64,000 nucleotides of DNA from Takakia lepidozioides (lineage: Eukaryota > Plantae > Bryophyta): the NCBI GenBank assembly GCA_030704615.1, contig CM060731.1, positions 22,320,001-22,384,000 on the forward strand, written 5' to 3'. The first letter of the stretch is position 1. Every line of letters begins with the position of its first letter. Below the pieces are notes generated by a model. It was not told where the DNA came from. It worked only from the letters and a program-made list of their open reading frames with translations, and searched no databases. Below are positions 1-57,513 of this stretch, in pieces. The position numbers and the translations under genes were made by a program.

Positions 1-835
1 CTGTAGCACACCGTCCCAAATCAACCCAGGACCATTGTCTCGAAAAACATGAGACGAGGGAAAGCTTATGAGCGTAGGCAAGGCTGCATGTGGTTGCCCC
101 ACTCGATTTACTACTGCTAGAGGTGGACGGTCATCATGTTGCACCCTCTGTGGTTGCCTCCCTTGGTCCAAAATGCCCTCAACTATGAGATTGGGTGGCC
201 GTTGAATGGAATCGTATGCTCTCTTGAGCAGCTCTGGTGGTGCAAGATTGGTCCACCACAATCGAGGTTAATGCGCTCGTGATCCCACCGCTGCTGCATC
301 CAATAGCACCGCCGATCCAATCCAAAACCGCACCTGATGCTTACTGGCTATAACCCTGGCCCGAGAGTCCCCTATAAGAGGAACATTCTCCAAGATATAG
401 GCTAGCACTTGCTTCGTCTACAAATCACGCAACACTTTCAACATCTCCCAAAACAAATGCAATCGCGCATCATGCAAGCCATTCCCATGACCTATGGGAT
501 AGTGTCCTTGACAAGACCATCCAGCTATCACCAAGTCAATGGCACCATGCTGGTCCAAATCATCCGCCCCCAGCAAGGTAATGTCTGCTAGCCAAGCCTT
601 TTTGATACCCTTGAATTGCTCAGAGAGGCAACAACTCAGGATACCGGTGTGTGAGCAAGACGATGTGGCACATAGAAATACACCGAGCTATCTCATCCTT
701 CTCCACATACAAGTACTTGCGTACTTTAAACCCTGCTTGCAACACTCTTGCAAGCCCAGTGCTCATGCCTTCAAACATGTCTAGCAAACAAATCCTCGAG
801 TCAAGTGGTTGCCAGATAATGAGCATTGTGTCCAA
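1..835 (-). pseudogene. Degenerate C5 DNA-cytosine methyltransferase domain inside an LTR retrotransposon (continues past window start)
   Basis: Manual minus-strand translation gives motif I LLDMFEGMSTG (~787-755), motif II YLYVEKD, a frameshift at ~600, then IDLVIAGWSCQG (motif IV, Cys at 513-511, PCQ->SCQ), GLHDARLHLFWEML, YILENV (motif VI, 390-382) and DAAAVGSRAH*PRLWWTNL (motif VIII, 300-244). In-frame stops at 620, 420 and 270. Confidence 0.9.
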
Positions 836-844
836 AATGGAGGT

Positions 845-1060
845 GAGAGAGGCTCATGGAGGCTCAACTACAAGAAGATGAGCCTCCTCCATCCTCACAA
901 AGGGAAAACCTATCCCCATGTCCCAAGTGAGGCTCAACACCTCATTTGGCATGTGAGACCCAATGAAGTCCCAACACACAAAATATAAATATAACTATCT
1001 AAAATGTCCTAGTTAACTAGAAGTAGGTAATTCTAGATAACCATGACTAAAACCCTGATA
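845..1060 (-). repeat. Partial LTR (5' part on minus strand) of the DNMT/PHD Gypsy family
   Basis: Near-identical to 38032-38248, including the LTR terminus (aaaaccctgata vs aaaaccatgaca). Directly abuts the DNMT sequence. Confidence 0.85.
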
Positions 1061-3162: not shown

Positions 3163-3537
3163 CTAGTGCCGGCAACATTTCGTATTAGGGAACGTTACCA
3201 ATCTGGTGTCAAAGCAGTCTTTGAAAACTATATCCTGAGGCGCATTTGGGGGATTTCTCGCGGATATGTCCGGACCCAAAGAACGGATCCTATTTGAGAC
3301 TATATGGGTTAAACCCGGTTTCTCTATATTCACCTCAAGGTGGAGGTCATCTTTAGGGAATTGTGTCACGTGTTTGATCACATGCTTCGCTAAAGATTTG
3401 GGTCCACACAATAAGACAATGAAGTCATCCGCATAGCGTACATAATGAAGGCGTACATAGTTCGGATCCTTCTGGTCCACAGAGATTATTCCTTGTTTCA
3501 CAATTAGCTTGAGATGTTGTCTATTCTCTTTCTCCAA
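3163..3537 (-). pseudogene. Group II intron reverse transcriptase/maturase fragment (mitochondrial insertion, NUMT)
   Basis: RLHYVRYADDFIVLLCG catalytic YADD motif followed by ...DDLHLEVNIEK..., typical of organellar group II intron RT domains 5-6. Lies next to a mitochondrial-type tRNA. Confidence 0.85.
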
Positions 3538-3575
3538 AACGATCGAGTTACCTCCCAGCTCCTACGTTCTCGTTT

Positions 3576-8500: not shown

Positions 8501-8725
8501 TCTTCTCTATGATTCCTCCGTGGTGAATGGACTTTCTGCTGCCAGCTGAAGGAGTCAGCTGCGGGGATATCTCACCATTCTCAATTCCTATGAAGACATG
8601 TCAAGAGAAGGATGGCTTATTGGGATGCTTTTGGCAGAATCATGTTGTTGTGAACCTAATTGAGTATGTCAAGTGCTCATTATCAATGGAGAGTGACAGA
8701 GGAAGGGGTTAGGGATTGCTTGATA

Positions 8726-11518
8726 ATGGGAAATTGTATAGGAAATGGTGACAGCTATGAACGACACGAATGGGTCAGAAAATGCAGCCAGCATTTGGCC
8801 AGGGGTTTGCTGGACAACAACAATACCAATATGCTTGTCTTCAATAGAAAGGACCAAGTTTCTGCAACAATTCAGAGCTCAACTAAGTCCTACAGTGGGG
8901 TATTCAGTCCATGTTCTCCTTCGTCAAAGCACCAAGAGCTGAGTGATTCAAGACTTGTAGAATCTATAAAGGAGGTGACAACTAGAGATGACTGCAGCAA
9001 TGCTTCTGATTTCAAGAAAGAACAACACACTGGAGATAACACTGCAAGTGAGGCTGAGACGAAGGACCCATCAGGAGTTGATTTGAGGGAGACATCAGCA
9101 TCAGAGGCACATGAAGACTCTAAGAAATTTGCATCTGACCTTCATTTTTATGTCGTGACCTGGAATATGAATGGCAAGGTGAGTCATTTCATTATAGTAG
9201 AAATGGAGAAATGAAAGGGAGTTGTGGCAGTTACAACAGAGACAGAAAGAGACCAGAAGAATTGGAGATCAATGATCTGGGACTCTGTCCTAATGCTAAA
9301 TTACTATGAATTGACAGAGATGATTGTACCGAATGTCTCTGAAGCAGTTGATACTGGACGTCAAACTTCTCTCAGGCTTCTCTCTCGTGCTTATGAGGAT
9401 GGTGGCTTGCTGCAGGCACCTCTTGATAATATCTCCAAGCTCCTTGATGTGACAGATGAATGTTATGACTTCTATGTCATTGGCCTCCAAGAAGCCCCCA
9501 GCTTGCCTGTTGAAGCTGACATTGCTGACGCTCTGGGTCACACCTACTGGTTTTTGTCAATCCCCTCTTGCTGTTTGGTGCCCTTCCAATATCTGTACAC
9601 TTGAGATACAACCTAATTTGACCTCGTTGCTTCTTGTTTACCTACTATTGCAGTAGCAATCTGTGCTTCTAAAGTGCAGTCTGTTCACTAAAGACCTTGT
9701 GTTGACATGGCCATGCAGTCTTGTTGGAGCAGCAGTTATGATGTCCCTCCAACTCTTTGTGTTTGCTAAGATATCTCTCCAAGTACATATCTCAGGTATT
9801 TATCTTTATGCTGTGAGCAGGTCTATTAGGGAATCTGTTGTATCTATCATGTTTCTGGATCAAGGCCAAGCTTCTGATGGAAAATCCATCCATATTCAGT
9901 GGACAGCATGGATTTTGAAGTCAGGTTAATGTGCTGAGTGCTAGTGGAAATCTGTTGATATTGGAACTATTAAGCACCCCTGCAGGTAATCTGTGTTGCT
10001 CTCCTGGACCCAAGGGAGTGTTGGTTTGGAATGGTCATGGGTATCAAGCATCACGATGATGGGACCCAGAGGCACAGTAAGGCAGAATGAAAAGGATGGC
10101 TGCAATGACAGTTGTCAGTTACAGACTATCATTCCAGTAAAGAATTGACTAGTGTCCTGCCTGTGGGAAGCAGGTCTAAAGGTAGATAAAGTGGGAGTAG
10201 GAGGCTTTGGGACTGTGGTTGGCCGCCAGAAAGGTGCTGCAGCAGTCATGTTGAACTTCAAGGAGGTTTCTCTCCTCTTCATTACTGCTCATCTTACTCG
10301 TGAGTCACATTTCCTTCCCTTCATGGTATGTACTGTCTCTTTCATATGATATTAGTATGTATCCTTTCTCTAGAGCCCTGCCTATGATAGGCTGAAGGCC
10401 CTAGAAATAAGTGGGAGCCACTTTTCATAGCTTGAAAAGTTATGTTTAGAGGGCTGTGTGGAAAGGCTTCCAAAGGCTCACTATTTTGCTTGTTCTCCAG
10501 TGCAGCTCATGAAAGCAATGTTGAGGCACGCAATGCCCAGTACCTTCGCATCTCCCAAAATGTGTTTGCCAGATCGACATCAGGCATTTGTTCCTGTATT
10601 CCATCATCAGCTGTTGCTGATGAGCCCCATTGCAAGGTCCCAGGGATGACCTCCAATTTTGTGGAAGAATCGGATTTCGTAGTATGGCTTGGCGATCTCA
10701 ACTACCGTGTAGAAATGCCCCGCAGCTCTGTGGGATTTTTAATCAACCACAACCTGGAGGAGGTAAAATTGTTTGCTTTTGGACTTGGATTTGCCTTTGT
10801 CTTCTCTCACTCACATCTCTTCTCAGGAACATTTATTGGGTCTTGGTTAAGATGGATGATGGTGGTATGGCAGGTGTTGTGGGCCAAGGACCAGCTGTCA
10901 AGAGCAGTGCAGAGCGGCCAAGTCTTCAAGGGTTTTGAGGAAGGGCCTCTCTTGTTCCCACCCACATACAAGTACGATATTGGCACTGACAACTATGACA
11001 CGAGCTCTAAGGTATGGTCGGTTACTCAATCTTGACTGTACAACATTCCCTGCAAGTAGTGCCTATGACATAGTTCTTGCAGGATACAAACCTTCATGGA
11101 GCCAAGATGTTGGGTTTTGGGCTTTAACCTGCCAGGTTGAAAAGTCACCCCAGAATTACAAGTGCCCAACATTTGCTAACAAGGTGAAATAAGGAAGCAG
11201 ATACATCCTGGTTGCACTACTATTGTTTGTCATACTGGCCATGCTTGTAAATTATCGTCAAAAAGCCATAAGCTAACCCAGTATGGATCAAGTCTTTCTA
11301 AGTACACAATGTCATTCTCTTACTCCTGTCTTCTGTGGGTGTGGATTCAGGAAAGAGTACCATCATGGACAGATAGGATTCTCTATAAAGTGAGCCACTC
11401 AAGCTCCATCAAGGTTGAATTGCAGGGCTACACGTCGATAGGTTGTGTGAAAAGTTCAGATCATCGGCCAGTGAAAGCATATCTTGCATTGAAGAATCTC
11501 AAGGAGAGCAGCTCATGA
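8726..11518 (+). CDS. Inositol polyphosphate 5-phosphatase (5PTase11-like), ~450 aa; exons 8726-9178, 9416-9549, 9719-9795, 10174-10299, 10506-10762, 10874-11011, 11351-11518
   Basis: All introns GT-AG with frame preserved (1353 nt). Motifs VTWNMNG, YVIGLQE, KGAAA, WLGDLNYR, FPPTYKY, PSWTDRILY and SSDHRPV. Confidence 0.92.
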
Positions 11519-12347
11519 TTGGGCTTTTCATCCATTGGTGTCGCAATGAACCAATTATTTATTTTTGCTGCTCCTAAATAATGCAGTAACATGACAAAGA
11601 GCTTGCTTTGCATGACTGCTTGGTTTCCAGTTCGAACAGTACAGAAAACATGACCGAGTGAGCTTTTTTTCCAACCTGATTTGCAATCAGACTCAATTTC
11701 ACTTAAACAGAGAGCTGCCTAATACTGCTGAGGGCAACATCTTAACCGTTCCAAGAGGAATGTAGCAAGAATGTTATTCAAAATGGAAACAATCAACCAC
11801 AAATTCATCTTTTGTTGGATCCATTCATCACATCTCTTTTGATGGCCATGCTCTATTCTGTCGTTCTCAAGCTCTTCAATCTGGGCTTGGATTTTATTAG
11901 GCCTCCTTGCTCTTTGATTCTCTGAAGGTTTACAGTACATGCGCCTGAACAGCTGATATGCATGGCAAACTGAGCGAAGGGACCACCTAGAGGATCGACC
12001 ATGCCCAAAAGTGACATGAAAAGGAGGTCTCCACCTTCAATATTGTGTACATATACAGTAGCATTCACATTGGTAACATGTAAAGAGGTAGCGATTAGGG
12101 CACAAATTGAATGTTTGGTTTCGTGTTCAAACTACAGCAACAAGATTGATTTAATTGTTAGGCCAGTTTTTTTCTGTAGATGTGCAATACTATTTGCCTC
12201 AACTGAACGTGATCGTGCAGAAGCTAGCATAACTTGTGTTGTCATTTGACACAAAGGATTAGTCTGGTGCCTGGGGTGGGAATGTAAAGGTTGGTAGAAT
12301 GTGACCACACCTATGTGGGAAGGTGGAGGTTGGTAGAATGAGACAGA

Positions 12348-12468
12348 GGTCCCGGCCCCGCAGTCAAGGTTAGGGCACTCCTTGCGCAGGCGCTGCACCT
12401 TGCCGGAGTCGTCCACCTTGTAGAACTTTCTTCTTTTTGTGTTTTAGCTTCTTGGGCTTGGTGTAGGT
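12348..12468 (-). pseudogene. RPS27A: Ribosomal protein S27a (ubiquitin-extension protein) gene fragment
   Basis: [41 protein letters not shown]. The KLAVLQ codons are deleted, and there is no ubiquitin moiety or C-terminus. Confidence 0.85.
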
Positions 12469-12659: not shown

Positions 12660-14560
12660 GCAGACCGGGCCTACAAACCCTGTGATCCCTCGCGCCTTCT
12701 TTGAACCACCCGAAGATGTTTGAATTTGGAAAGGGCAACGCTCCAAATCCGCCTCAGTGAGGCCCAAGCCTGCAACTGTTGCTCTCCCCAACATCAATGG
12801 TTGTGCTCCCAAATCCAACAAGACTCGCAGTGGCCTATACCTCCTCCCGACTGGGCCACTCAACTGAAATATTCCATCCTGATTGTCCACCAGAACTACT
12901 CCAAGAGTCATCATGCTGCGCTCAATGGTTAGCCTAGCTGGCAACTCCTGCAACCTTGCAGCTGCCGCTTGCCATGGCGCAGCCGTGGCTGACTTCACCC
13001 TCGAATCCAAGGCATCCATAGACTGCACCTTATCTGCTATCCCCGCAGATAGTGCCGATGCATCGCCACTATCACAAAGTCTAGTTGCTAGTCTGAACAC
13101 AGCAGCTGGCCGTATCCCCGGCATTGCAATGGTCATTGCAGAAAACTATGGAGGTTGGCAAACAACCGTAGTCGCCCCCAACAATGTACTAGCTACATCT
13201 TGCTTTGCAGCACCACCTACTGGCATTTCCCGAGCCACACCTACTCTCCCCAATGATACTCGTGGCTCTACCTATGACACACTTGGGCGAGCGGGTACCA
13301 TCGATGGCGTAGTTGGTACTGTCTCAGCCAATGTAAAGGACTGTGGAAGCCTTGTCTGATGACTTGCTTCCCCCCTTTGTGGATCAAAATCCACATTCGC
13401 TCCTCTTGGCTCAGGAGCAACCGTTGTTGTTCAAGTAACAGCAGCAACAGAGTCCAATATATGCAATGACCATGCAAGTGTGGCTCCACACATGAAGCTC
13501 GTACCAATCTGGTCTTCCCTAGGCATATGAGGTTGTGCAGGTGGGGCTTGAACCTCATGCCTTGGAGCTGGCGCAACATGAGTAGTGGCCATGACAGCAA
13601 GATGTTGCTCTAGCTGGGCAAGTCTATCCACCATGCCTTGGTCATGACCTTGACCTGTGCTCCTTGGTTTTGGTTACGACCTCCACCACGACCTCTACCT
13701 CCTCTACCTCTCTGGACTACATTGCCTCGTCCTCGGCCATCATTGTTCCCTTGGAACTGGCCTGGCCGTAGCTCCGGATGCAAGTCATAACAATGGGCCT
13801 CCTCATGTCCATACTTTTCACAATGCCCACGCTGTAGTTGTGTAGGTTGTGCCTGTGCCGGCCCTTTGTCTCTCTCTGGGCAATCCTTCTTGACATGGGG
13901 TCCTCCTTCTCCTCAGCTCCTTGTCCAGGATCCCATACCAGAACTGGGCTGTCTGAGCTTCTGTAAGCCTTTGGGTTACGTTTATCAAGCGCCTCATGCG
14001 AGTGTAAACCTCCCTCAAACTCTCGGTAGGTCTTCGTTCGAACTCTTGCAAGCTCCGTAACTTCTCTGTCATTATCCCTTGGTAGTTTGTCTTTAACTCC
14101 TCGAAGAACTCCACAACTGGGTTAAAGGCAGGCATAGGTGCTGGTGCTGCAGCAGGAGCTTGAATGGATTTCCCAGCTCCTGTACCACTTGTCCCACTAC
14201 TAGTGCTTACAGTTGGAGATGTTGGTGTAGCTGCTGGTGTCGCCGCTGCCCTTGTGCCTCTAGTCATGGAGACATAGTCAGGTGACCAATACTCTCGCCA
14301 CTCCTCAATCTCCATCTCATGTTCCCGCCTGAACTCATGGTAATCGTCCATTGGGCGGGCCCTCAAGGTGCTGAAACAACCCCTTCCACGCCATAAAATG
14401 CGTAAACAGTTGTGGATTGCACATCTGCTGCAAATCCCACCAACTATCAAACTCTTGTATGAAATCATCAAGCTCGATGGTGCCCACAGCTCCAGAGTAC
14501 CGACGTGGCCCCTTGGTAGCTCCATACATTTCCTCCATCGTGTCCCACAACAATGGCAAA
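12660..14560 (-). mobile_element. Degenerate Ty3/Gypsy gag-protease region (same family as 38335-39960)
   Basis: Gag-like ELDDFIQEFDSW / FERRPTESLREVYTRMRRLI, zinc-knuckle remnants, and aspartic protease LRVLLDLGAQPLMLG. 13205-13900 is a near-copy of 39100-39790. Confidence 0.85.
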
Positions 14561-16261: not shown

Positions 16262-16361
16262 TAGAAAAAATAGCCTGAGAGAAAAGGCCTACAACTGACC
16301 CCAGTCAGCAATAGAAAAATAAGCCTGAGAGAAAAGGCCTACAACTGACCACAGTCAGCAA
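16262..16361. repeat. 50-bp tandem duplication spanning the cyclophilin stop codon
   Basis: Two copies of tagaaaaa..agcctgagagaaaaggcctacaactgacc(c/a)cagtcagcaa. Confidence 0.9.
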
Positions 16362-16855
16362 TAGTAACCTTTTGCCTGGTCGATCCACTTTGAGAACCAA
16401 CCTTCTCAATGTCTTTCACCACATTCATGCCCTCCACAACTTGTCCAAACACCACGGCTGCCATAAAGCCATGGGGTGGCCACAGTGCACAGGAAAAACT
16501 GAGACCCATTGGTGTTTTTCCCTGCGTTGGCCATGGACAAAATTCCAGCGCCCGTGTGCTTCTTGGTGAAGTTCTCATCTGCAAACTTTTCACCATAGAT
16601 CGACTCCCCGCCAGTGCCGTTACCCTTGGTGAAGTCACCTCCCTGGCACATGAACTCAGGGATCACGCGGTGAAACGAGGAGCCCTTGAAGTGGAGGGGC
16701 TTCCCTGAAGCACCCTTCCCCTTCTCCCCAGTGCAGAGGGCACGGAAGTTCTCGGCAGTCTTCGGGACTGTGTCAGCATACAACTCCATGATAATTTTCC
16801 CAGATGGCTTGCCGCCAATGTGGATGTCAAAAAATACACGGGGATTTGAAGCCAT
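16339..16855 (-). CDS. Cytosolic cyclophilin (peptidyl-prolyl isomerase, ROC/CYP18-19 type) with an apparent 2-nt frameshift near 16455-16462
   Basis: [10 protein letters not shown]...[16 protein letters not shown]...NGSQFF...TPWL, then VVFGQVVEG...IADCGQL* in another frame. The CDS is 517 nt versus 519 expected. A 5'UTR intron (~17233-16860) is present. Confidence 0.85.
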
Positions 16856-17432
16856 CGTGCTGCACATTGAAACAGTTGTGTCAGATAACCTTTCATCACA
16901 TTTCCAATACGTCCGGTTTGGGAGAAATAGGGTTAAAATGAAGGCTAGAATCCCCACACAACTAGGACAATTCTAACTTTCAGATCCTGTGCAGCCCAAT
17001 GCCCTTTCCTATCCATCTAGAATAGCCAATCGCATCAGCTAACTAACACCTCCTCCGAAGCATCAAGCGCCTTCCCAAGAAAATGAGCACCTTACTCTTC
17101 AATATTCACATTAACACAACCAGACTAGCGACTTCCCACCGTCCAGAACAAAAGAAACACTCGTAACAGACATCTAGAGCTAAGCAAAATCCGAAAAGGG
17201 CACAGATTGGCGCACAAGTTCGCAGACAGATACCTGAATCGTAGAGGCTGCGAACAGGAATCCGATCGCTGAAGAAATCACAAAGACAAGCCCGACGTCG
17301 TAAAGGATTGCGGCTTCAGACCAAGGGAGAGATGGAGGCAGGCTGCCTTCTTTTCAGCAGCGGTCGGGAGGTCGCACTTGCCAACCTTCGGCTTAGACCT
17401 GACCGTCGATCTCCATCCACCGCTGCGATCGT

Positions 17433-17441: not shown

Positions 17442-18449
17442 TGTAGCTGACCCTACAGAGCGTATTTCAACGTATGCTTATCGTATATTCTTTAGTAGGT
17501 ACCAGCCAGATGTAGGTGGCACACAGGTATGTATGTAGGTGGGTAGGTACCAGAATACGTGTTTTTTTGGTATACATAAGAAGACCTCTCCATTTGTTTG
17601 ATTTATTTTCATTCATTCTCATTACATCCACTCCTGAGCAAATATTTATTTATTTATTTTATTCTATTTTTAAAAAAGGGAAAACATTGGGAGCGACAGC
17701 TCACAAATCAGGCCCCTTAATAGTGAGAGGAGAAAATAATAAAAAATTAAAAAAACCTCTTTCAAGTAACTGCTCCTTGAATGCGTAGAAATTGGACATC
17801 GCCCAAGGGAAGGGGGAGAAGAATATACCACTCCCATCAAGTAGCAGGATTTGACCTAGAATCGTCTGGGTGGCCCCGAGTGCACTAACCAACTCTATGA
17901 GCGGGTAGCATTCCCAATTCGTCATTGGGCCAGGGCCCCAGCCACGTGAGAACACCTAGAGTCACCACACTCGTGGTTTTCAGCCCATTTGGGCAGCTAA
18001 CCTGCCCTCCATTCTAAGTGGTCAACTAGGGCCAGGTTAGGGCGAGAAAATTCCGGCACCCCCATCTTGCGCATGGTGGCGCTCGTCTCCCAACACCCCC
18101 CTCCTAGGGAATAGCAAAAAGGCTGTGTTAAGCGGGACGCCATAAAAATGAGAGTTTTGGGCTGGCCTGGGCCGCTGCCCGGGGTCTAGACCATGGAACC
18201 AAGCCAGAGTCTGGGCCTGTGAGGACTGGACGTCCTGCGCCACCCCATCCATACAGGAACTCATGGCGAACAAATTTCGGCTGATGCCCGTCCTTTCCTG
18301 CTATCTCGGGGTTGCAGTGGCCCGGGCTTAGAAAGCCCGGGAAAGATTTGCTAGCCCTGGGTAAATATTCCGTGGACCCGGGAAAGATCTCTTTACCCTG
18401 GGATATGAAGACACCCAGAAATATTGCAGACGAATATTCCTTGACGCCC

Positions 18450-18925
18450 TTTAACCCTGGGTTACATAAGGCCAGTTTTCATCTGTCGACCATGTATTCT
18501 ACATCACGAATTTTCTAGGTTGTCTCGCGTACGAGAGCACTGCCTCTACGCCAAACAACAAAGGCGTCGTTTTTACTGAGCACACATCCGTTTTCCTTCC
18601 TGTTTGTTGGATCTCGTGTATCGTTAAATGTCTCTGCGAAACGAGGACAGACTCTCTTGAGGACTCCAAAGATACTTGAAAAATACCCCCAAGCAGTTCG
18701 GCAGAGGTTAAGGATTTCCCCTTGAAAGCACAGAACCATATCCCAACGTAGAAATACTGGAAGAGAAGGTTTAAAAACTCGCAGACCTGGGGCCTTGGGA
18801 AAACATACTTGTTGGTGGTCAACACCCATGGCCGATGAGCCCTCGGGTTGGGCTGAATGAGTACGCGTAGGAATAGAGTGGCACAGGATCCCGTTCAGGT
18901 CTAGAACAATTAGTTTTGACTTTTC
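18450..18925 (-). pseudogene. FCP1-homology/NIF (HAD superfamily) phosphatase-like domain, frameshifted
   Basis: KSKLIVLDLNGILCH (HAD motif I variant), YVFPRPQVCEFLNLLFQYFYVGIW, and a downstream VD..K.ALCNP remnant. Confidence 0.7.
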
Positions 18926-19881: not shown

Positions 19882-22018
19882 CAAACGGGCTGCTTGGCCT
19901 GCAACTCCTGCCCGGCCCCAACGCGAGGGGTTCGTGACACAAGCATGCGCTTGCTTCATCCCTTCGGCCTTTGCAAGTCCACGAGGGGACTCCCAGTAGG
20001 CAACAAGCTTATCCCAATAGGCGGGTTCAGTGTTCATTGGCCTCACACCAGTCTTCGCCCATTTATCTTTCAGTTTTGCTCTTTCTCCTTCATTATCTTC
20101 CCACATTGCTTGACTATAAAATCACGATTGGCAGGGATAGGTGTGTACTCGTACATTCCATTTATGCCCTCTATTACTGTTGACATGGCACTCTGGGACT
20201 GCTGGTCAATGTCTTGTACGCTTGAGTCAAGGTAACGCAATGCCAGGCCATGCAAATCACGCTGCCAGTGTTCCTTACCTTCGCAGCCAACATTGATGAC
20301 TCCATTTCCATGCACCTCCACCTTGTGGCGCTTTAGCCCTGCAGCCACCCTTCCCTCTCCATCTCCTTCCCATTGTTTCATGGCATGGCGTCGTTCCTTC
20401 CTCAGCTCCGATGACCGTTTCCTGCCCCCATGCTCTGGAGCAGCGCCGTCATATGTTGTGGGGGGTGACTGATGTGTGCCGGAGGGGGGAGGGCCGTATG
20501 GAGATGTGGGAGGCCCCCATTGTGACGTACCAGCATCAGGTAGCCAGCGCCACGACCCCGAAGCAGGGGGGGCTCCCCATGGTGCACTCTGTTGTGGAGA
20601 CCATCCGGAAGGGTGGGTGCCAAGGTTGGTGTTGGTTGGCATTGTATGGTGGCTGTGAGTGCTTTGCTGCAGCTTCACTCCCCTTCCGCTGCCAAAAACA
20701 TCCCACACACAAGGTGCATCAGCTGTAGTCCTACTGAACACAACGTCACCAGAGCACAAACCATCCCACAACCACAACCATAAACAGCAGACCTCAAACC
20801 CACTCCCCTGCAGCGCAAATGCCAAAAAATGAAAAGGAGAGGGACAGAATGTCCTCATAACATGTAAGGCCATTAATTGGTGAAGAAGCAGAATGTGGGC
20901 GGGTTCACATCAGTACCACATGAAACTTACCAGGAAACAGAACATCCATCCGGGTTTTCCACATATCCAGTGGACATCTATTCACACAATCATGTGCTGG
21001 CTGTATGTGCTTGCCCAGCAACGGAGCCCCAAAAGGCCTAAAGACTCTCAATGTTGGTAAACACAGGTGCAGACACAATTCAATTGATAGCTTGGATATC
21101 CGGTGGTTTGTCTGGTGATATCACCCCGGGCAGTGAATCAGACAAATGAATATTGTGTTTGTGGAGCCCACAGAACGGGCAATAGCACTCTCTCATCCCT
21201 CTCAGCTTCTGTTTGTTGTCCAAAGGTATGCTTCCTCACCAAATCCACAATTTCAGTCTGGTGCACACAGTGGGTAGACCCTTCAGATCATCCAGCACAA
21301 TCTAGAAACAGGTTCATGGATGTTTTATGCCTAACTTCTTTGTCATTACACAATTTTGTGGCAGCACACTTGGCTTTGGACACTACAGTCTCTAAGTCAC
21401 ATAGTTCCAGCAAGGTCAAGACTTGACGGTCCACATTCAGATCCTTGAGAGTCTCATCTAGTCTCTTCTGGCAGGACTTGGCCTGTTTGGCTGGGCGGTC
21501 CTATTTCCAAGATAGCAAATGCGTACTCCAAGGCAAGTCCAATGACGCGACAAAGCAAGGTTTTCTTGACCTCATAGTTAATCCCTCTGTACGAGAACAA
21601 TTTAGTGAGACTCGGCACTTTGCCCTTCCTGTTTGAACAACTTTATGGATATGTGCATCCCAGTTTTAGTTTGAGGAGAACTCAACGCCCAGAAAACATG
21701 AACACAAGTAGGGGTAGAACTCACCTCATGCGCAGCGGGCTTGTGCCGTTTGCGCACCTTTTGGAGAGACTCTGCAGATGGAGGTGCAATTTCCGCCAAA
21801 CTGTCCTCCACGTCATTGTCGTCGCCCATGCTATACTCGCTTGTGTCAGAATCCGAACTCGAAGACCGCCCACCGTGCCGCCTTCCCTCTCGCACCGAGG
21901 CCATCTTTTGCGGATTCAGTCGAGCCAGGCGGGGGCTCCTTCGTACCGCGGGGCTGGAATGTGCAGAAGTGGGAGGAGGTGATGCTCCCTCGGCGGTCGA
22001 GCGCTTCTTACTAGGCAT
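19882..22018 (-). pseudogene. Spliced En/Spm TnpA-like (Ptta/En/Spm plant transposase family) gene; exon 22018-21725, exon 20666-19882, further exons probable
   Basis: Exon 1 (MPSKKRS...RRSPRL...KVRKRHK, NLS-rich) ends at a phase-0 GT donor and joins in frame at AG 20667. RPMNTEPAYWDKLVAYWESPRGLAKAEGMKQAHACVTNPSRWGRAG matches the P..W..LV.YW.S...G pattern. Frameshift at ~20085. Confidence 0.65.
20790..21700 (-). mobile_element. 5'-truncated, internally deleted LINE copy in the intron of the TnpA-like gene
   Basis: Reverse-complement similarity to 46753-47900, e.g. 21400-21515 vs 47133-47260 and 21530-21665 vs 46765-46905. Confidence 0.85.
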
Positions 22019-25000
22019 GGACATAGACCATGACAAAGATGAAGACGAGCGAGGACATAGACCATGACCAAGACAAAGACGAGCGAGGAAGACCAAGACA
22101 TGCAAGGAGGAAAGAAGGACAAGGAGGGGAGTGTGATCACACACCCCCCCGATCTGTAGTGAAGATCCGGCCGTTGTTGATTTCAAATAGGAACACGTGT
22201 CATGCATCCGACACTATGGCTTTTTCGACTTTGAGACGTTTCAAAATAACCACTTACAATCCTCCAGACAACTAGATATAGTGATTCACACAACTGACAT
22301 GGATCCGTTCACTTTATTTCGTTCAAATTAGGCGAAGGAAATACACTGCAATGATGTCGTGTATGGCTCCGCTTTACATGCATTCTTGGAGAAAATGCGC
22401 ATGATGTGTGAGAAGTGAACACAGTGCTCTGCCAAATGATTCAGCAAAAACAAACTCAACTGTAGTGGTTCTCCCATCGCAAAGAAGGGTCCATTCGACA
22501 CCCATCGCACCATGCCAGGTTGAGGTCCTCACACACACACCTGCGCACCGAGAATTTGCGAACCCACATCAGCTGGGAGAACATGGAAATTACCCTGTGG
22601 ATCACATGCAAGCGTGAATGAGAAATGGAAGGAGAATTGCATGGGAGATTTTGGTGTACCTGCGTGACATGCAATTCTGTCTACATACTCCATAAGTCAC
22701 TGTCCCAAGACCCAAGTGGACAAGGGAGGCCAGTGAGAATCTGGACCTAGGGGAGAATGCAGACCATGAGGGTCTGAGGGAACCACAAAATCTACCAGAT
22801 ACGGCCGAACCAGTCTCTTTGGAAGGAGCAGTTACCTTTAATGAGGAAGACATTCCAGGGTTGGTAATTACCGCAAGGCAAATTGCAGATGTGGGCAGTG
22901 AAGGGGAAGATTCTTTGGATACGGATAGTGAGCCCAGCTGAATCTCAGTGTCCATTAAGCTGGCAACTCGTAGACGAGAGCTGTGCTAATGACTCTTACT
23001 GTCCTTAGAACCCATTTTGTACAGTCCTGCAAACGCGCAAGGGCGAGACAGTTAATAGTATCGATAATGTCCCGGAATGTGGTCCGTACTGTCTTGTGAA
23101 CAAACCTATATTTACAGTATGATTTTAGTTCAGAACCAAAGGGCATATCCTTCAGCCTTGACGTCTTTGCGATCTTCTTCTGTGACGCCTTCTTCATAAC
23201 TTGAGAAATGGAAAAGCAGCTACATCTCAAATTATTGCAAGGCCACTCAATGGCACTAAGAATGTTGCGTGGATACTTGGGAATTGATACCAGAAGGGCA
23301 TGCCCGTATGCGCGCTCCATCGTGCCTCCATCCAGCACATTCTGTAAATCTTGAATGACCAAGACCCCGATGTTACACCCTTCTGAGAAGCCACTACGCG
23401 CGCTCACTGTATACGAAGGCCTTGCCGTGTCAGGATTCACATTCCCACGTCCCGCCATGTCCGACGAAGCACTTGCATCCCTGTCTCTGCCAGGTGGAGG
23501 CAACACGTATTAAAATATCTATTCCCCCAAGGCCACATTTGGTTTACCTCTTTTTGTGAAAGTCACATCAGCAAATGTGCTCCCGAATCATGGGTGCAAT
23601 GAATGCGCAGTGGTTCATGGAGTCGTTGAGTCGACTACATATTCACTTTAATGAATAAATATTTTTATTCCATTAATCGAATTAGGAAAGGAAATTTGTA
23701 GTCGCATGTGCAGTAATTACAACCACTTGTAATTTTGGCTTTTTCAAATTTTATGTATTTACGCAATTCGTAAAATAGCCCGGAATTCTGCTACGACTCC
23801 GGAGTCGTTGACCCCACTTCTGTCCGCCGTCTGAAATGCCCCCGTGGGCCCACATTGTCTGTTTCGACTCTCCAGTAGTCCAGTTTACTACCAAGTGGTT
23901 CCCGGAGTGGTCGCGGACATACAGTCGATTCGGAAAAGACACGAATGCTTCTAGTGAGAGATGGGTGCGTACAACATACAACTTATTAGCACCCAGTCTT
24001 CAAGTAATCACTGAATTGCAGTGCCATGGTCCTACCCCGTCTCACAGTGGGTTTTAGGGCCACCACTTTCTGCAACTATTCCATCAGCACAACATCGAAT
24101 AGCTGCACCTTTGCCATGCAAATACTCTCTATAGCACATCCAAAATGTGATTATGAGGAGAAAACATTCTTCCCTTTGTTCAGCTTGTCCGATTTTGGCA
24201 AGACATCCCCCATCTAGCCACAGTCTCTGAAGTTTATGTCCAATCACCACTATACTACACGTCACTGTGCAATATGTACACCTTCCAAACTCACAGCATC
24301 ATGAACAGAGGATCTGCAGTGATGGTCAGTAGCCCTTGTTTCCTCGAATTTGCTTCGTCATATCCACCTGTCCCACAATCGCCTTGAAAATTCTCTGAGA
24401 AAGATTCTGCTTATAACACCTTCAGTTGTTGGTCTCTGATGAGAGGTGAAATGAGTTCTCTTTCAGTTTTGTCGAGGAATTCAATGCAATGCAACTCGTA
24501 GCAGCAATTATGTTAACCAAATACTCCTCGTTTCATAAGAGACAATTTACGAGATCCAACAAACAGGAAGGAAAACGGATGCTCAGTAAAAACGACGCCT
24601 TTGTTGTTTGGCGAGAGAGGCAGTGCTCTCGTACGCGAGACACCTAGAAAATACGCGATGTAGAATACATGGTCGACGGATGAAAACTGCCTTATGTAAA
24701 CCCAGGGTTAAAGGGGTCAAGGAATATCCGTCTGGAATATTTCTTGGGTGTCTTCATTTCTCAGGGTAAAGAATCTTTCCCTAGGGCTAGCGAATCTTTC
24801 TCGGGGTTTCTAAGCCCGGACCACTACAACCCCGGGACAGCATGAAAGGACGGGCAGCAGCCGAAATTTGTTCCCAATGAGTTCCCTGTATGGACTGGGG
24901 TGCAGGACGTCCAGTCCCAGGCCCGGACCTGGCTTGGTCCATGGTCTAGACCCCGGGCAGCGCCCCAGGCCAGCCCAAAACTCTCACTTTTATGGCGTCC

Positions 25001-26087
25001 CGCAACACGGCCTTTTTGCTATTCCCTACCCCTCCACCCTAAAGCGCCCTCCATCGTCGGGCAAAGGCAAAGGCACCCCCCCAAAACCCACATACCTTAG
25101 GGCTGCCTGCCAAAACGTATAGGCAAACATAGATGCACATAGATGCACATGGAGAAGTCATGGGCAGGGGAAAAAATCATATGAAGGGAAGCTCTGATTG
25201 GCGCAAAAGTTTTTTTGTGCTTACACAAACCTGCCCACTACAGTACAACTGGAGCGATTAACAATTCAACGGTTCAGATCTTTTCACCAAATTTTCTAAT
25301 ACGGTTTTGTGCTTGCCAATTGAAATTGGGAAATTTGACCCCCCAAATTGGCCATACAAAGCAGCCCACATGAGAACATGTCAGAAAAAGCTGAAATTTT
25401 CAGAGCAGATGTCTTACCTGGCAGGGTACAAGATTCTGGTTTGTGTCATGTCAAACAGTTTCACAGCTGATTCGATAAGAAAAGCTGTGTTTTTTACCCC
25501 ATTGTAAATAGGAAATTTGTTTTTGGCCCAACTTTCAACATTATAATCTTGCAATCCGGCGGTTTGATTTAGACCAGACTTTGTTTGGTCATAGCTGGGG
25601 TAAGTAGGAACATATTACAACGGTCAGTTTTACAGGGCCTGAGGAAATCTCAAGATATAAATTATTTAGTGGGGGAGGGTCAAGTTTTTGGGGGTGGACA
25701 CAAAAATTGGGGTTAGTCCTTTAGGGGTTAAAGTCTCTAAGCGCACCCCTTTTTATTTTTTTTCTTAAAGGCATGGGCCTGTTAGTTTCATACAATGGAG
25801 AAAAAAAAAGTGCGGAGGAGGCCATAAGGCAGATTACAGTGAGGGACCAGCCAACGCAAAGCAAGAGAGAAACAGCACAGTAGCCTAGACCCAGAAATAG
25901 CAACCCCATTGTTAATTTCAAAATTTACACCCTGATAAATAGTAAACAATAAGAACCTATAATAACATGTGATGTATATGGAAAATCCCACAAGGGGAAG
26001 AGGCTCTTATTTACGCTAGCTCCGGTTGGCATCCTATATATATATATATATGGAAATAAATAAATAAACTTCAGGATCCGGAAGATA

Positions 26088-26578
26088 TCCGTGATGACAA
26101 TTTGCTTCCGGGGCTTTCCACTCTTGGAGCCAACAGCCTCCATCGCCTTCACAACTGCGAAACTGTCGTGTACTTGTCCAAATACAACATGTTTGTTGTC
26201 AAGCCAGGGGGTTGGAACGGTACACAAGAAGAATTGTGATCCGTTCGTATCAGGGCCTGAGTTGGCCATGGACAGAACTCCGGGGCCCAAATGCTTGCGG
26301 ATGAAGCTCTCATCCGCAAATTTGTTTCCATATATAGATTCCCCAGCACCCGTGTCCCCTCCCTGGCACATAAACTCGGGAATGACCCGGTGGAAAGTTG
26401 TGTTCTTGTAGAGGGTTGTTCTCGACTTGCCCATGCCCATTTCCCCGGTACACAAGGCACGGAAGTTCTCGGCCGTCTTGGGGGTGGTATCTTTGTACAG
26501 CTCCATCACAATTCTGCCTTGGGATTTTCCGCCAATGCTGATGTCCAAAAACACTTGAGGGTTTGCCGGGTTCGGTAT
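26088..26578 (-). pseudogene. Cyclophilin pseudogene
   Basis: Cyclophilin sequence with the start mutated (tgcag|caagATA vs tgcag|cacgATG in the first copy), a deletion in [14 protein letters not shown] (reads GGDTGAGES), and loss of the terminal CGQL. Confidence 0.85.
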
Positions 26579-34383: not shown

Positions 34384-35756
34384 TCAAAATATCCACTGCA
34401 GCATGGGACGTGCTAGAGAAACTAATTGAGCCCGTTGAAATGGGAACATCATCATATGCGATATTTTGTTCCGTATAATTGGCGAAGCTCGTATTCGTTC
34501 CTTTGTATAGGATCCCCCGTTGTATAACAACCTCCATTTTGCAGAATTGATTCTACCCAACGATGGAGTGTGAAGATTTGAACTTGCATTATCCATTGGA
34601 TTTGTTTTTGCAACTCCAGGTAGACTTGCATCCTCATCCAAATCATCCATCTCTGGGGCTGTAGTGCAACACCAATTAATATTTTATTAAGACTTACAAT
34701 CATTGCTATGGAGAATGTCCTAATATATAGGTCTTTAAATTATTTTCTAAGGCTTTTTGTGTCCAAAAACTGTACAAAGGCTATAAATTGTTGGTTTCAT
34801 AATTTGAAATCAACTATGAGGGAATAATCAATACAATGTGAAGTATTACAATTTGGTGTCGAAGTCTTACCTGTAACAAATGAACTATAACTGGATCGTA
34901 TGGAGCCAAATGCCACTAACAATTCTTGCGGCATATGTTGATTATCAATAGAGGTCCTCATGTTAATATCCCATATATTTGGATGAACACGTGAGTTCAT
35001 TGGACCTTCAGGTGCAATTGGCATCAAAGCGTAAGGAATACCACCAGCAAGAACAATGTTGACACGACAAAGAGGGCAAGTGGAGTTTGACAATAGCCAG
35101 GTGTCGATGCATGATATATGAAATGCGTGACTGCAATTGGGAAGAATGCGGATGATTTCGTCATCCACAAACTCACTTAAGCATACTGAGCCTTCTGAAC
35201 CTTGAATTGACCCATCATTTTTGTTGTATTTGCAAATAGGTATACGCTTGATAAACGTCTCTGCAACTCCGAGTGAATTAACGGGCCATGCTTGTTCTTC
35301 TGTTCCGAGACCCTATTCACAATTTGATGATCAAAATATTAAATAGGTTACATTGATTATATATAGTAGGTTCAATTGGATTTTTTTAAATATTTAGAGA
35401 AATAAATGATTATAATTCAACATGAACTTATAATGATTTGCATTCATTTGCTCCATTATGCATCAAAAGATCTTATTTAACTCGTAAAACTAAGTGATAA
35501 GTACTACTATTTGTGGAATTCCAACTCTTGAAAATATGGTATGTACCTGGATGTTGAATGAACCTTGATCTCCATTACTTTGTAGATGATCTACTCTCGG
35601 CTGTATCCGCAATCGCATATAATATTTGACAAAAAGACGATAATAGCTTACTATTAGAAATGCACCTGCTAGAACCCCTATTACTGCAATGATATATGGA
35701 CTAAAACGAGATACCGATAGATTATTTGTGCTACTTGTGCTTCCATTAGTATCCAT
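34384..35756 (-). pseudogene. ATL-family RING-H2 E3 ligase, probably degenerate; exons 35756-35547, 35312-34871, 34658-(34384)
   Basis: TM helix IIAVIGVLAGAFLIVSYY, GLD-like GVAETFIKRIP, RING EGSVCLSEF...LPNCSHAFHISCIDTWL...CPLCR with the first Cys replaced by Gly. The 3' exon appears frameshifted, with coding-like sequence continuing to ~33950. Confidence 0.75.
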
Positions 35757-37829: not shown

Positions 37830-38248
37830 TGTCGTGCACCTAAGCATCGTGCCACAACATACATCGCTGTCCACCACACAATTTAAGCACACAATCCTAG
37901 AAAATTATACTACAATGTGATAATGAAAGTGAACATAATGGAAACACACCACTCATGAACCATTCAATCACAGGGAATCCACCCTACAAAGCCCTCACTA
38001 CACTCCCTCTCAATACCTAGAGCTATGGGGGCGAGAGAGGCTCATGGAAGCTCAACTACAAGAAGATGAGCCTCCTCCATCCTCACAAGGGGAAAACCTA
38101 TCCCCATGTCCCAAGTGAGGCTCGACATCTCATTTGGCATGTGAGACCAAATGAAATCCCAACACACAAAATATAAATATAAATATCGAAAATGTCCTAG
38201 TTAACTAGAAGTAGGTAATTCTAGATAACCATGACTAAAACCATGACA
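37830..38248 (-). repeat. Complete 419-bp LTR
   Basis: TGTCGTG...CATGACA (TG...CA with short terminal inverted repeat). Partial copies at 845-1060 and 38251-38334. Confidence 0.85.
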
Positions 38249-38334
38249 GCTGTCGTGCATCTAAGCATCATGCCACACATACATCGCTGTCCACCACACA
38301 ATCTAAGCACACAATCCTATAAAGCTATACCACA

Positions 38335-39960
38335 ATCGCCCCCCTAGCCACCGGATAGCTCACAAGTATCCATCCCAATAAGATCATTGCTTGGTCATCA
38401 ATCGCCCAAGTCCCAGTATCTGAAGTCAATAGATCAAGAGGTCGGGTGCAAAAGTAGCCCCATCGTTACTCGCCTTCCTACAATCCATGGCTTCAATTGG
38501 GTGTCCATGGCATTGAACTCCTGTTAGCTAGACCTTGGATCACTTGTCAATTTCACCACTGTCATGCTCCACTACCTCTGTCCAAGGCATCGTGGATACA
38601 ATCATTCTCCACTATGAATCTCCTCAAGTGGCGGTGTCAAGCATCCCATGTGCCACCCCCTTGAGCATTTGTCATACACTAACATGGTCGCGGCACCACC
38701 AGCATGCCCACATAGCATGCAACGCACCCTGCATGTACCACTGCAAGGTTGGGATCTATCCTCCCATCCACATGTGGAAGGTGACATGGCGCACAATTAC
38801 GCACATGGTCCTTCCATACCATGCCATCTCGACCCTCCAGAATCAACACTCCTGAAGGCAACACCTCCCGGACCCTTAGAATCACACGACCTGCTGTGAC
38901 ATCCAAGGTCGTAGGCGTTGTCTGCTGCAGATACACATAGTCCTCAGGATGGAAACGCCGAACACCTGGCCGATATCCCCCTCCACGTATAGTAACGTAC
39001 CTCAATGTGTCTCGGTGTTGGGCAATAGCAAGGTTCTCAAAAGCCATAGGCATGACTCCTGAGTCGGGTGGTTGCCCTGGGTAATGGGCAGCGTGTTTTG
39101 CAGCACCACCCACTCGCATTTCCCGAGCCACACCAATTCTCCCCAATGACATTCGTGGCTCTACCTCTGACACACTTGGGTGAGCGGGTGCCATTGATGG
39201 CGTAGGTGGCACTATCTCAGCCATTGTAAAGGACTGTGGAAGCCTTATCTGACGACTTGATTCCCCCCTTTGTGGATCAAAATCCACATCCGCTCCTCTT
39301 GGCTCAGGAGCACGCGTTGCTGCTCGAGTGACAACAACAGCAGAGTCCAATACATGCAATGTCCCTACAAGTGCGGCTCCACACATGAAGCCCATACCAA
39401 TCTGGTCTTCCCTAGGCATATGAGGTTGTGCAGGTGGGGCTTGAACCTCAAGCCTTGGAGCTGGCGCAACATGAGTAGTGGACATGGCAACAAGACGTTG
39501 CTCTCGCTGGGCAAGTCTATCCACCATGCCTTGGTCATGACCTTGACCCTGACCCTGTGCTCCTTGGTTTTGGTTATGACCTCCACCACGACCTGTACCT
39601 CCTCTACCTCTCTATGACTACATTGCCTCGTCCTCGGCCACCATTGTTCTCTTGGAACTAGCCTGGCTGCAAGTCATAACAATGGGCCTCCTCATGCCCA
39701 TACTTTCTACAGTGCCCACACTGTAGTTGTGTAGGCTGTGCCTGTGCCGGCCCTTTGCCTCTCTCCGGGCAATCCTTCTTGATATGGGGTCCTCCACAAT
39801 CCCAACAAGTCACACCGACTGTTGTTGGCCTGAGCATGAATGAAGAGACCTCTGCATCTGAGATCATCTCTGTCCTTCCCTGGGCTTCGTCTGAGCCCTC
39901 TTGTTTCCTTGAGCACGTTGGGGAGTTGGTTATTGTTGGCTAGGAACTCCACTTCATTGT
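38335..39960 (-). mobile_element. Internally deleted Ty3/Gypsy element: gag with two CCHC knuckles, integrase C-terminus, PHD finger, PPT
   Basis: CWDCGGPHIKKDC and CGHCRKYGHEEAHC; MPMAFENLAIAQHRDTLRY...RRFHPEDYVYLQQ...LEGRDG (post-integrase); CMLCG..TMLVYDKCSRGWHMGCLTPPLEEIHSGE*LYPRC (PHD); purine tract ggctaggggggcgat at 38349-38335 next to LTR sequence. Confidence 0.85.
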
Positions 39961-42249
39961 GTTGCCAAACCCCACCATAACCACTTGCTTCTCCACCATA
40001 TTGAGCTCTATCCGCTCTGATAGCAGGGTTTCATGTGCATCCCATGCTAGGGTTTTGTGCCCTATCCTCTACTAATCGCACGGTGCTTGCTGTGTCCGTG
40101 GATCCTTTGAGCACTGTAACGACGCTATGTCGGGAGCTTGCGAGCCTCAGCTCATGTTTTTTATGATGTGGCATGAGCCTAGGCTCACCTTTGCCATGTG
40201 ACATGCTTCTAGGCTCATATACGCTACGTCATCAATAAGAAATGTGACCTATACCCATGGAAGAATGATCATACAAACCGTAAGGAGCTTTGGTTTGCGA
40301 GCCTCAATGACGTCAACTTCAAGTTTAACACTATTATGAAATAGAATGGACAACAACAGCCCGCAACAACAGATATAGAGACACCCAAATATTTCATAAT
40401 GGATTTTTATCCTTGTTACAAAAAATGACAACAAACAAAGAATGTGCCAATGACTCAACTACATTCTTTTCACCTTCAATTGTTGGCTGATTGCTCATAG
40501 TATTTGGCTTTTTTGCTTTGGACTCGTTTTGGGGATAGTGGGAGTGAGACTCTTGAGGTGGAGGATCTCATGACTTGAGAGAGATCATATGTGGAGCTTT
40601 TGGTGAAGAGAGAGTGGTCTTTGAGGGATTCAGATGTCTCTGTTGGCAATGCATGTGTGGGGTTTCATTTCACAACAATCAGCATCTGCTGAATGCATTC
40701 CTGTGATGTTCATCATGCCTTGACGCTGTTAGGTTATCATTGGAGTCTAGAGCTGCCTTGGAACTCACTGTTTTCTTAAAATGAACTGAGGGCAATAAAA
40801 GATTTTGAGAGAGAGAGAAGATAAGTGATACCAAGGCTTACTTAGCCAAGGTTACTAATGGTGAAGAATTATAGAGGTGTTTATATCTGATAAGCCCCAT
40901 GAGCACATTGATGCCTTGATATTTTGCTATCTCTCTGTGATTACCGAGTTGGCATATGCAATTACAGGAGCCATAACATAAAGTGTTGAGCATCTGCTGT
41001 TCTTTCTCTTCCACTGCAAGGTAGCAAGCGTGGAATGTAACGGTATTCTTGGCACTATTTAACACTTGGGTAGTTTATGTAGCCCCCTTTTTTCACACCA
41101 CAGAAATCTGTCCGTCATTACTCATGTGATCATGTGACTTTGCATTTCATGTTTATGTTTAGCGGGAGATATTAATCCTGCATGAAATACCTTTGTTTGG
41201 GACAAGACCAGGGATGTATGGAATCTCCGCCATACACTACTGTTTATTATTTATTTTATTGATTATGCCCAGATATTACTTGTTATCGGCCTTCATATTA
41301 ACGCCTCCCCACCCACCGCCCCCTCCAATAATCTTACCAACCACCTTATTGAATTCACCTATTGCCATGACCGATACCCCAATATAGCCATCATAAACAA
41401 ACGCGAAAAAATATGCTCTTCTCATCCGAAAACTCAGACGGTAGGCATGGAACACTGGTCCCGGCCTAACAATAATCACAATTGGAACCAGAGGCGGTAT
41501 TCATAATGATAGCATTAATGCTCTTCATAACAACTTCAAAACCCCTACCACTACCATTCATCAATGCTTTAAAGATATCCACCTCACTGTCATGCGATTT
41601 CTTACAGAGAACTGACCATTAGTTAGAATCAATCTCAAATGTTCGGAGGAGCGATGTAGGAGCTCCATGGTTTGCGGTGAGAGACAAAGACTCCCAACGG
41701 TCTCTTCGTCTCTCTCACCTCAAGGATCTATCGACGTTCTCGATTCCTTCCCTGCGAGTTGGGAAATTTAGGCTTCATTTCCCCTCATGATTTTTTCCCC
41801 ATCATTTGAGCTTCTTTTCATTATATTCTTCACAAAACTTGATTATGTACTAAAACTTTCACACCTCTTTTCCTAATCATCACCATTTCATCCTAACACC
41901 TTTACTTCGCAGCATGTAAGTGGCACTATTTATCATCAACAGGCTTCTCACGGCTCTGTTGTCGCCGTCAATATCAAGTCCAAAATTTAACTCCTGCCAC
42001 TTGGTCGGCTCTCTCAGCCGTCACCCTCCATTATTCCGCTTCTCTACCCCCTGCCAAAATAGAGAGAAGACTCCGGCCGAAACCGGCGTAACTAAAAGCC
42101 ACTTCGCCTCATGACTACTTCCCCCTTTTGGGGGTGGGCCCTATAAAAAAACAGATGTCCAGGGGACACCGGGTAACCATGGGATAGGGTAACCCCCGGA
42201 CATCGCAAATCATTTTGGGTCTTACTTGGGTTGCATTGCCGTCTTTGAT

Positions 42250-53920: not shown

Positions 53921-57513
<3,593 letters not shown>

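Follow-up and report, generated by a model that had tools for sequence, protein, structure and literature searches.

A dead copy of a DNMT3-type cytosine methyltransferase carried by a Ty3/gypsy retrotransposon in a land plant

Introduction

Retrotransposons carrying a cytosine methyltransferase are known from algae, which are hard to manipulate, and it is an open question why a transposon should carry an enzyme that normally silences it. In the available text of de Mendoza et al. (2018; PMC5890265), KnitGypsy-Dnmt3 of the alga Klebsormidium nitens has DIRS-like repeats and encodes its methyltransferase (DNMT) in one ORF together with the reverse transcriptase (RT) and the RNase H (RH). By this published description, and not by sequence, the family studied here, whose host is a land plant, shares with KnitGypsy-Dnmt3 an intronless and unrearranged DNMT3-related domain within a Gypsy element, a DIRS-type repeat layout (A1, ORFs, B, A2, B) and purifying selection on the DNMT. 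However, K. nitens is described as having few copies whereas our family is highly repeated, and in the relatives of the window copy the DNMT and the RT lie in the same frame but with a stop between them (34 of 34 in-frame loci). No match named Klebsormidium appeared among the DNMT matches of our protein searches.

SymbioDIRS-Dnmt3 of Symbiodinium is, according to the accessible part of the same report, also a retrotransposon-borne DNMT3 with split repeats and methylates CG in yeast, but it belongs to a dinoflagellate DIRS element and, as stated there, was captured independently, whereas our family has a DDE integrase and 4-bp target duplications. The EpiLTRs of Cymbomonas and Euglena (10.64898/2026.05.21.726589) likewise combine, in an LTR element, a cytosine methyltransferase with a domain that reads chromatin; however, their DNMT is sister to DNMT4, they bear DAM and a chromodomain, and the text available states that they are distinct from the streptophyte Gypsy-DNMT3. 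Gypsy-7a_cRei of Chlamydomonas (10.1101/2022.06.16.496473) is a Gypsy element with a PHD finger, but it has ordinary paired LTRs and no methyltransferase is named for it in the accessible portion of that source. Finally, the host DNMT3 and DRM of bryophytes have a DNMT3-class catalytic domain, but the motifs of the host DRM are rearranged in the part of the description at hand (PMC6453930), whereas the domain of the element is multi-copy and fused to Gag-protease.

Regarding land plants, PMC12344493 and 10.64898/2026.05.21.726589 refer in their available passages to 'streptophytes' and do not name land plants, and the supplementary table of PMC12344493, in its accessible form, has neither Marchantia nor Sphagnum rows. 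Such an element is not mentioned in the available portions of PMC6453930, PMC9985172, 10.1101/363937, PMC11244446 and 10.1101/2022.06.16.496473, and our literature search, most subscription papers lying outside its scope, found no land-plant report of one. The element described here is a land-plant variant of the known algal kind, real but dead at this locus. Marchantia polymorpha has annotated hypothetical genes that are relatives of the element, and methylation mutants of this liverwort are described in the accessible text of 10.1101/363937, so the question of what the enzyme is for becomes testable.

A broken DNMT3-type domain at the start of the window

The window, that is, the whole stretch of 64,000 nucleotides that was analysed, begins within a C5 cytosine methyltransferase domain (Table 1). 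Motifs I to VIII are included, as is some of the target-recognition region, and the domain runs on past the window start; the edge falls at about residue 1145 of the Marchantia protein and GQAMD is at residue 1182, so the last DNMT motifs are outside the window. The original prediction of a dead, intronless copy with C5-methyltransferase motifs I, IV, VI and VIII in canonical order, interrupted by one frameshift and three stops, agrees with our results. The four motifs were found in that order on the minus strand, the domain is spread over two frames with a single frame change near 590, and one of the three stops is inside motif VIII. Motif IV of the window copy has Ser-Cys. Marchantia protein P0005 aligned with 64% identity over 612-4 and 53% over 850-587, and its alignment showed no intron-sized gap. 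The PF00145 search proposed with the prediction was also positive, giving for 1-588 an E value of 6.6e-6 and 26.2 bits (curated cut-off, 22), and 572-838 by itself matched no Pfam family. The Marchantia protein scored 258 bits on the window DNMT, and none of 200 base-shuffled copies of that DNMT gave more than 22.7. The stretch 1-836 is a dead, intronless copy of a retrotransposon DNMT3-type methyltransferase.

Table 1. Features of the DNMT retrotransposon family in the window.
Feature	Position	Strand	Basis
Broken DNMT3-type C5 cytosine methyltransferase domain	1..836	minus	PF00145; 53-64% identity to Marchantia gag-PR-DNMT proteins; motifs and stops
Motif VIII (RAH.PRLWWTN)	279-247	minus
Motif VI (ENV)	390-382	minus
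Motif IV (GWSCQ)	522-508	minus
Motif I (LLDMFEG)	787-767	minus
Three stops of the DNMT	620-622, 418-420, 268-270
Terminal repeat A (element 5' end), first 224 bp, fused to DNMT	837..1060	minus	94.7% to 38025-38249; contigs; depth
Broken gag-zinc knuckle-protease piece, same element family	12681..14538	minus	tblastn with Marchantia P0005 residues 1-683, 39-81%
Repeat B2	37916-37830 (within 37830..38248)	minus
Spacer between A2 and B2	~37975-37917 (within 37830..38248)	minus
Repeat A2	38248 to ~37976 (within 37830..38248)	minus	self-comparison; locus comparison
Repeat B1, CA end, then two bases and TG of A2	38251..38336	minus	90.8% to 37830-37916
Polypurine tract directly ahead of repeat B1	38339..38345	minus	place and sequence type as in L005, L014, L055
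Integrase C-terminus and PHD finger of third copy	38587..39056	minus	77% / 60% identity to whole element L063
PHD finger of third copy	38587-38727
Gag piece of third, internally deleted copy	39174..40068	minus	tblastn with P0005 residues 208-494

In profile comparison, the best solved relatives were DNMT3A (E 6e-18), DRM (8e-9) and HhaI (5e-5), and the predicted model of the relative P0003 (pLDDT 87.5) matched the DNMT3A fold (E 2e-17). With DNMT3A first both by profile and by the modelled fold of P0003, the enzyme is assigned to the DNMT3 class. Selection was compared on the DNMT, the dN/dS of the RT being set aside as disturbed by frameshifts. Values of pN (0.24-0.33) and pS (0.70-0.77) between the window DNMT and the moss-like copies described below show purifying selection between lineages; two moss-like DNMT copies differ from each other neutrally (dN 0.055, dS 0.056). 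Among the 25 best-supported places where a transition distinguishes the window copy from most contigs, 5 are CG, 6 CHG and 14 CHH, the CG share not being above background.

Abundance, relatives and domain order

In the related sequencing run X1, 3299 contigs fall on 1-1500, so the DNMT is not single-copy, and one of them is identical to the window over 1029-1500. The summed contig depth was 34,000-129,000 over the DNMT and 38-209 over the flank, a quantity which is not a copy number and supports 'highly repeated' at most. In the related runs, the stretch with the DNMT is highly repeated. Contigs of two runs, the RNA nature of which is a guess, fall on the gag and integrase parts. A single host gene, the pyruvate kinase treated below, points to a liverwort as the likely host.

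The first protein search retained 39 proteins out of 2336 candidates, 19 of them with organism names: 15 Marchantia polymorpha rows, partly duplicates as they span several assemblies, 2 from Calypogeia fissa and 2 from Sphagnum. No vascular plant was among the named matches of this search or of a 64-match search, both word-limited. A profile search with an E limit of 1e-30 yielded 423 clusters. When 230 proteins were classed, 49 had gag or protease ahead of the DNMT, 109 had the DNMT between RNase H and integrase, 4 showed only an RT after the DNMT and 68 consisted of the DNMT alone. In addition, 145 of 196 matches from a metagenome scan were confirmed, and the best 80 of these 145, some of which are one insertion in two assemblies, were analysed as loci. 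Because the locus translations match Sphagnum fallax P0040 closely, these moss-like loci are likely peat moss. In the ESM Atlas, a 57-member streptophyte PF00145 cluster ranked first, two phage clusters having an equal score, which is no more than a lead; viral contigs gave 19 pattern matches, none of them a relative.

Whole relatives do contain the DNMT, as anticipated, but not within a single gag-PR-RT-RH-DNMT-INT-PHD ORF. Among the best 80 of 145 loci, 53 of the 60 with room have a protease (PR) upstream of the DNMT and none of those 60 has an RNase H there; RT is downstream in 46 of 56, with a stop between, and the whole relatives read gag-zinc knuckle-PR-DNMT-stop-RT-RH-INT-PHD. This layout was pieced together from relatives and the window's three broken copies, not read from a whole element of the window's own genome. 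The catalytic Cys was kept in 79 of the best 80 of 145 loci, ENV in 74 and motif I in 76 of 78-80; PCQ was found in 56 of the 80. The DNMT domain was unbroken in 3 of 73 covered loci of this set, and in none of the three does an open frame extend back as far as gag. In these relatives, a DNMT3 with its catalytic motifs retained is fixed within the ORF of Gag and protease. They also show the order PR-RT-RH-INT, an integrase with H2C2 and rve, a polypurine tract, TG...CA ends and a target duplication, and the retrotransposon family with this DNMT is a land-plant member of Ty3/gypsy.

The predicted order RT-RH-DNMT-INT does not apply to the window's family but exists in a separate, more distant group. 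This large group (P0053-P0080 and many of P0277-P0413) has the arrangement RT-RH-DNMT-INT-PHD in 43 whole proteins and forms a separate DNMT clade; its single named match, a weak one, is the green alga Monoraphidium neglectum. The position of the DNMT has shifted among related elements. In a FastTree of 79 rows, which was midpoint-rooted, left out partial domains, host DNMT3 and K. nitens and had the RNaseH-DNMT-integrase group thinned to every third row, the window DNMT grouped with copies from Marchantia and Calypogeia and with moss-like ones in a clade of 14 rows (support 99), and the proteins of the RNaseH-DNMT-integrase order stood apart (support 93). Counter to host kinship, the Marchantia copies joined the moss-like copies (support 92) and not those of Calypogeia or the window, a grouping attributable to transfer or to old parallel lineages.

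The possibility was considered that the DNMT is a pseudogene of a host DNMT3 or DRM gene lying by chance beside a retrotransposon repeat. Within the window, neither RT nor gag is attached to this copy, and the nearest gag-protease is 11.8 kb off, past a host gene. However, every close named relative is a retrotransposon protein, the motif order is unrearranged and free of introns, thousands of contigs fall on the DNMT stretch, and 80 loci (the best 80 of 145) place the DNMT between protease and RT. Contig abundance and locus order refute this explanation in practice, and we consider it extremely improbable.

A conserved stop between DNMT and RT

The DNMT-RT spacing was normal in 47 of the best 80 of 145 loci. 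In 34 of these 47 the two domains share a frame, and every one of the 34 carries a stop at codon 76 past the DNMT. Among motif matches, a stop was found ahead of the RT in 50 of 50; it is TAG in 37 and TAA in the remaining 13, CAA comes next in 47, and an ATG is present three codons beyond it. The gene models of Marchantia and Calypogeia terminate 92-94 residues past GQAMD. With all 50 copies having this stop before the RT, synthesis of the DNMT together with Gag is likely, whereas RT and integrase would be produced by read-through of the stop or by restart at the ATG three codons later. Presumably, TAG-CAA at this site resembles plant read-through signals. As the RT is behind the stop, the DNMT would be more abundant than the RT, so the stop amounts to a prediction on the abundance of the enzyme.

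Broken copies in the window and the junction at 837

Three broken copies of the DNMT retrotransposon are contained in the window. Besides terminal repeats, what is left of the element there is gag, PR, DNMT, the end of the integrase, PHD and the polypurine tract. The gag-protease piece stops within the protease and carries no DNMT. The gag piece of the third copy has about 89% DNA identity to 13201-13906, and its integrase-PHD piece is also matched by the integrase-PHD of P0041; loose contig ends are present at 39058. A host gene and a 5' repeat stand between the gag-protease at 12681-14538 and the DNMT, so these were not taken as a single element split by 11.8 kb.

The DNMT had been reported as directly joined to an LTR segment with a full copy at 37830-38248. 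The repeat match stood, with 94.7% identity over 225 bp between 837-1061 and 38025-38249, but the adjacency of repeat A and DNMT is likely a deletion scar and not the native layout. Moreover, 37830-38248 is not a plain full LTR: it consists of A2, a spacer and B2, with a second B at 38251-38336, and the summed depth over the spacer bin is about tenfold below both sides. At 837, a 4-base word is common to both sides of the join. In run X1, 34 contigs part from the window at this point and continue as repeat A, 23 loose ends at 1058 open with the B-A junction, their agreement being low further out, and the depth is back to flank level past ~1060. No contig spanning the 837 junction was among the run X1 contigs listed, and there is room for a mis-assembly at this position. 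The stretch 837-1060 is a truncated 5' repeat A. An internal deletion would have removed the remainder of A, the leader, gag and protease from the window copy, which would then have decayed.

Split terminal repeats

The complete layout (A1, ORFs, polypurine tract, B1, A2, B2) was found in L055, and the 3' part of it in L014, L051 and the window, where it occupies 38345-37830 behind the integrase-PHD and gag pieces of the DNMT element. The B1-A2 junction of the window recurs in L005, L014 and loose ends of runs X1 and X5. Two identical LTRs were not found; the elements end as A...B or A...B-A-B, A beginning with TG and B finishing with CA. Both forms are flanked by 4-bp duplications, and in nine whole elements the duplication was exact in six, had one mismatch in two and was absent in one. 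By blastn, the moss-like A and B repeats gave nothing beyond short words against those of the window; kinship of both sets of ends is proposed because layout, tract and junction agree. A TGG start after A (tRNA primer site) was absent by eye in 7 of 7 loci. A DIRS element with tyrosine recombinase was rejected, the family having instead a DDE integrase and 4-bp duplications; bearing on the recombinase by frame length alone, no leader frame above 133 codons was present in 4 loci. Tools that require two matching LTRs likely overlook such elements, and the split ends together with a DDE integrase suggest an unusual way of making or inserting the cDNA.

In 4 of 6 loci the B1-A2 junction consists of CA, two bases and TG; the other two are recombined (one insertion). 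This fixed junction is likely the site opened by integrase on a circle, or a template restoring both ends. It is conceivable, if somewhat doubtful, that circular DNA gives rise to the copies after being opened where B meets A, with circles of one repeat yielding A...B and those of two yielding A...B-A-B; alternatively, the ends would be restored from a template in the manner of DIRS, B-B recombination following later. In agreement with circles are the contrast between the fixed B1-A2 junction and a variable A2-B2 join, which contains filler in L055 and L070/L071, the 4-bp duplications on both forms and the depth dip across the window spacer. However, symmetric circles predict equally frequent extra repeats at the 5' end. 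Among 20 tract-preceded B1 ends with room, A2 follows in 6 (5 of 18 distinct insertions) and 13 of the 18 distinct insertions stop at B, whereas B lies ahead of A in none of 23 5' ends, a count leaving out two rows that were A2 copies. This asymmetry, none against five, argues against a plain symmetric circle, and collapse of B-A-B to B could also come from short-read assembly or B-B recombination.

What the enzyme would do

The reading that we favour, and hold to be probable with some reserve, is that 1-836 is the dead DNMT3 of a much-repeated Ty3/gypsy element with split repeats, whose whole relatives are organised as gag-PR-DNMT-stop-RT-RNaseH-INT-PHD, and that the enzyme of a working copy is likely made with Gag, packed and used to methylate the element's own new DNA before insertion. 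Produced at the Gag level, the DNMT would enter the particle and be cut free; we infer that it may methylate the cDNA in cis, new copies thus arriving pre-marked. The methylation of CG in yeast by the DIRS-borne DNMT3, as given in the available text of PMC5890265, was counted in favour of this reading, and the lack of methylation by KnitGypsy-Dnmt3 in yeast, which the same text calls inconclusive, was counted against activity.

The inactivity of KnitGypsy-Dnmt3 on yeast DNA, in the accessible part of PMC5890265, would also fit a DNMT retained for nucleic-acid binding or for an RNA substrate, and so would its location on the Gag side of the stop, among structural proteins. We judge this quite unlikely, since the catalytic Cys (79/80), ENV (74/80) and motif I (76 of 78-80) are kept in the best 80 of 145 loci and the fold is that of DNMT3, not DNMT2. 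It is also unlikely, although a little less so, that the enzyme works after integration or in trans on the insertion site or host DNA with the PHD finger as a guide. Whole copies, and the window too, have a PHD finger behind the integrase, and an enzyme made at the Gag level could outstrip the needs of the cDNA; but the stop separates DNMT and PHD, the protease would likely part them, and cis action is argued by the authors of PMC5890265 in the accessible peer-review file.

Extending the favoured reading of cDNA methylation, we put forward as a speculation, for now rather improbable, that liverworts and peat mosses host a Gypsy lineage with a Gag-level DNMT3, methylation of cDNA within the particle and DDE integration through a head-to-tail circle junction, not through linear LTR ends, which is a major repeat in the window genome and may have shaped the host methylome.

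Other features of the window

A non-autonomous CACTA-type element was found at 1457-2517, with CACTACA...TGTAGTG ends and an AGG duplication on both sides. A reverse transcriptase piece with YADD at 3166-3561 (minus strand) matched RVT_1 below the cut-off (E 1.4e-4); we take it to resemble a group II intron protein, perhaps in organellar DNA. Two intronless cyclophilins, at 16342-16972, spanning two frames, and 25928-26626 (both minus), lie about 9.7 kb apart. Phosphatase gene exons (PF22669) are at 8660-11515 (plus), a ribosomal S27a piece at 12135-12443 (minus) and RING-finger frames at 34800-35312 and 56187-56588 (both minus). Dispersed repeats without annotation are located at 20948-21665, 46762-47876 and 50445-50849, and a second dispersed pair at 18105-18617 and 24549-25028; neither set matched any Pfam family. 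Two copies of the first set are in introns of the host pyruvate kinase gene (45.3-52.1 kb), which was placed beside liverwort paralogues in a quick tree of 39 rows (SH-aLRT 96).
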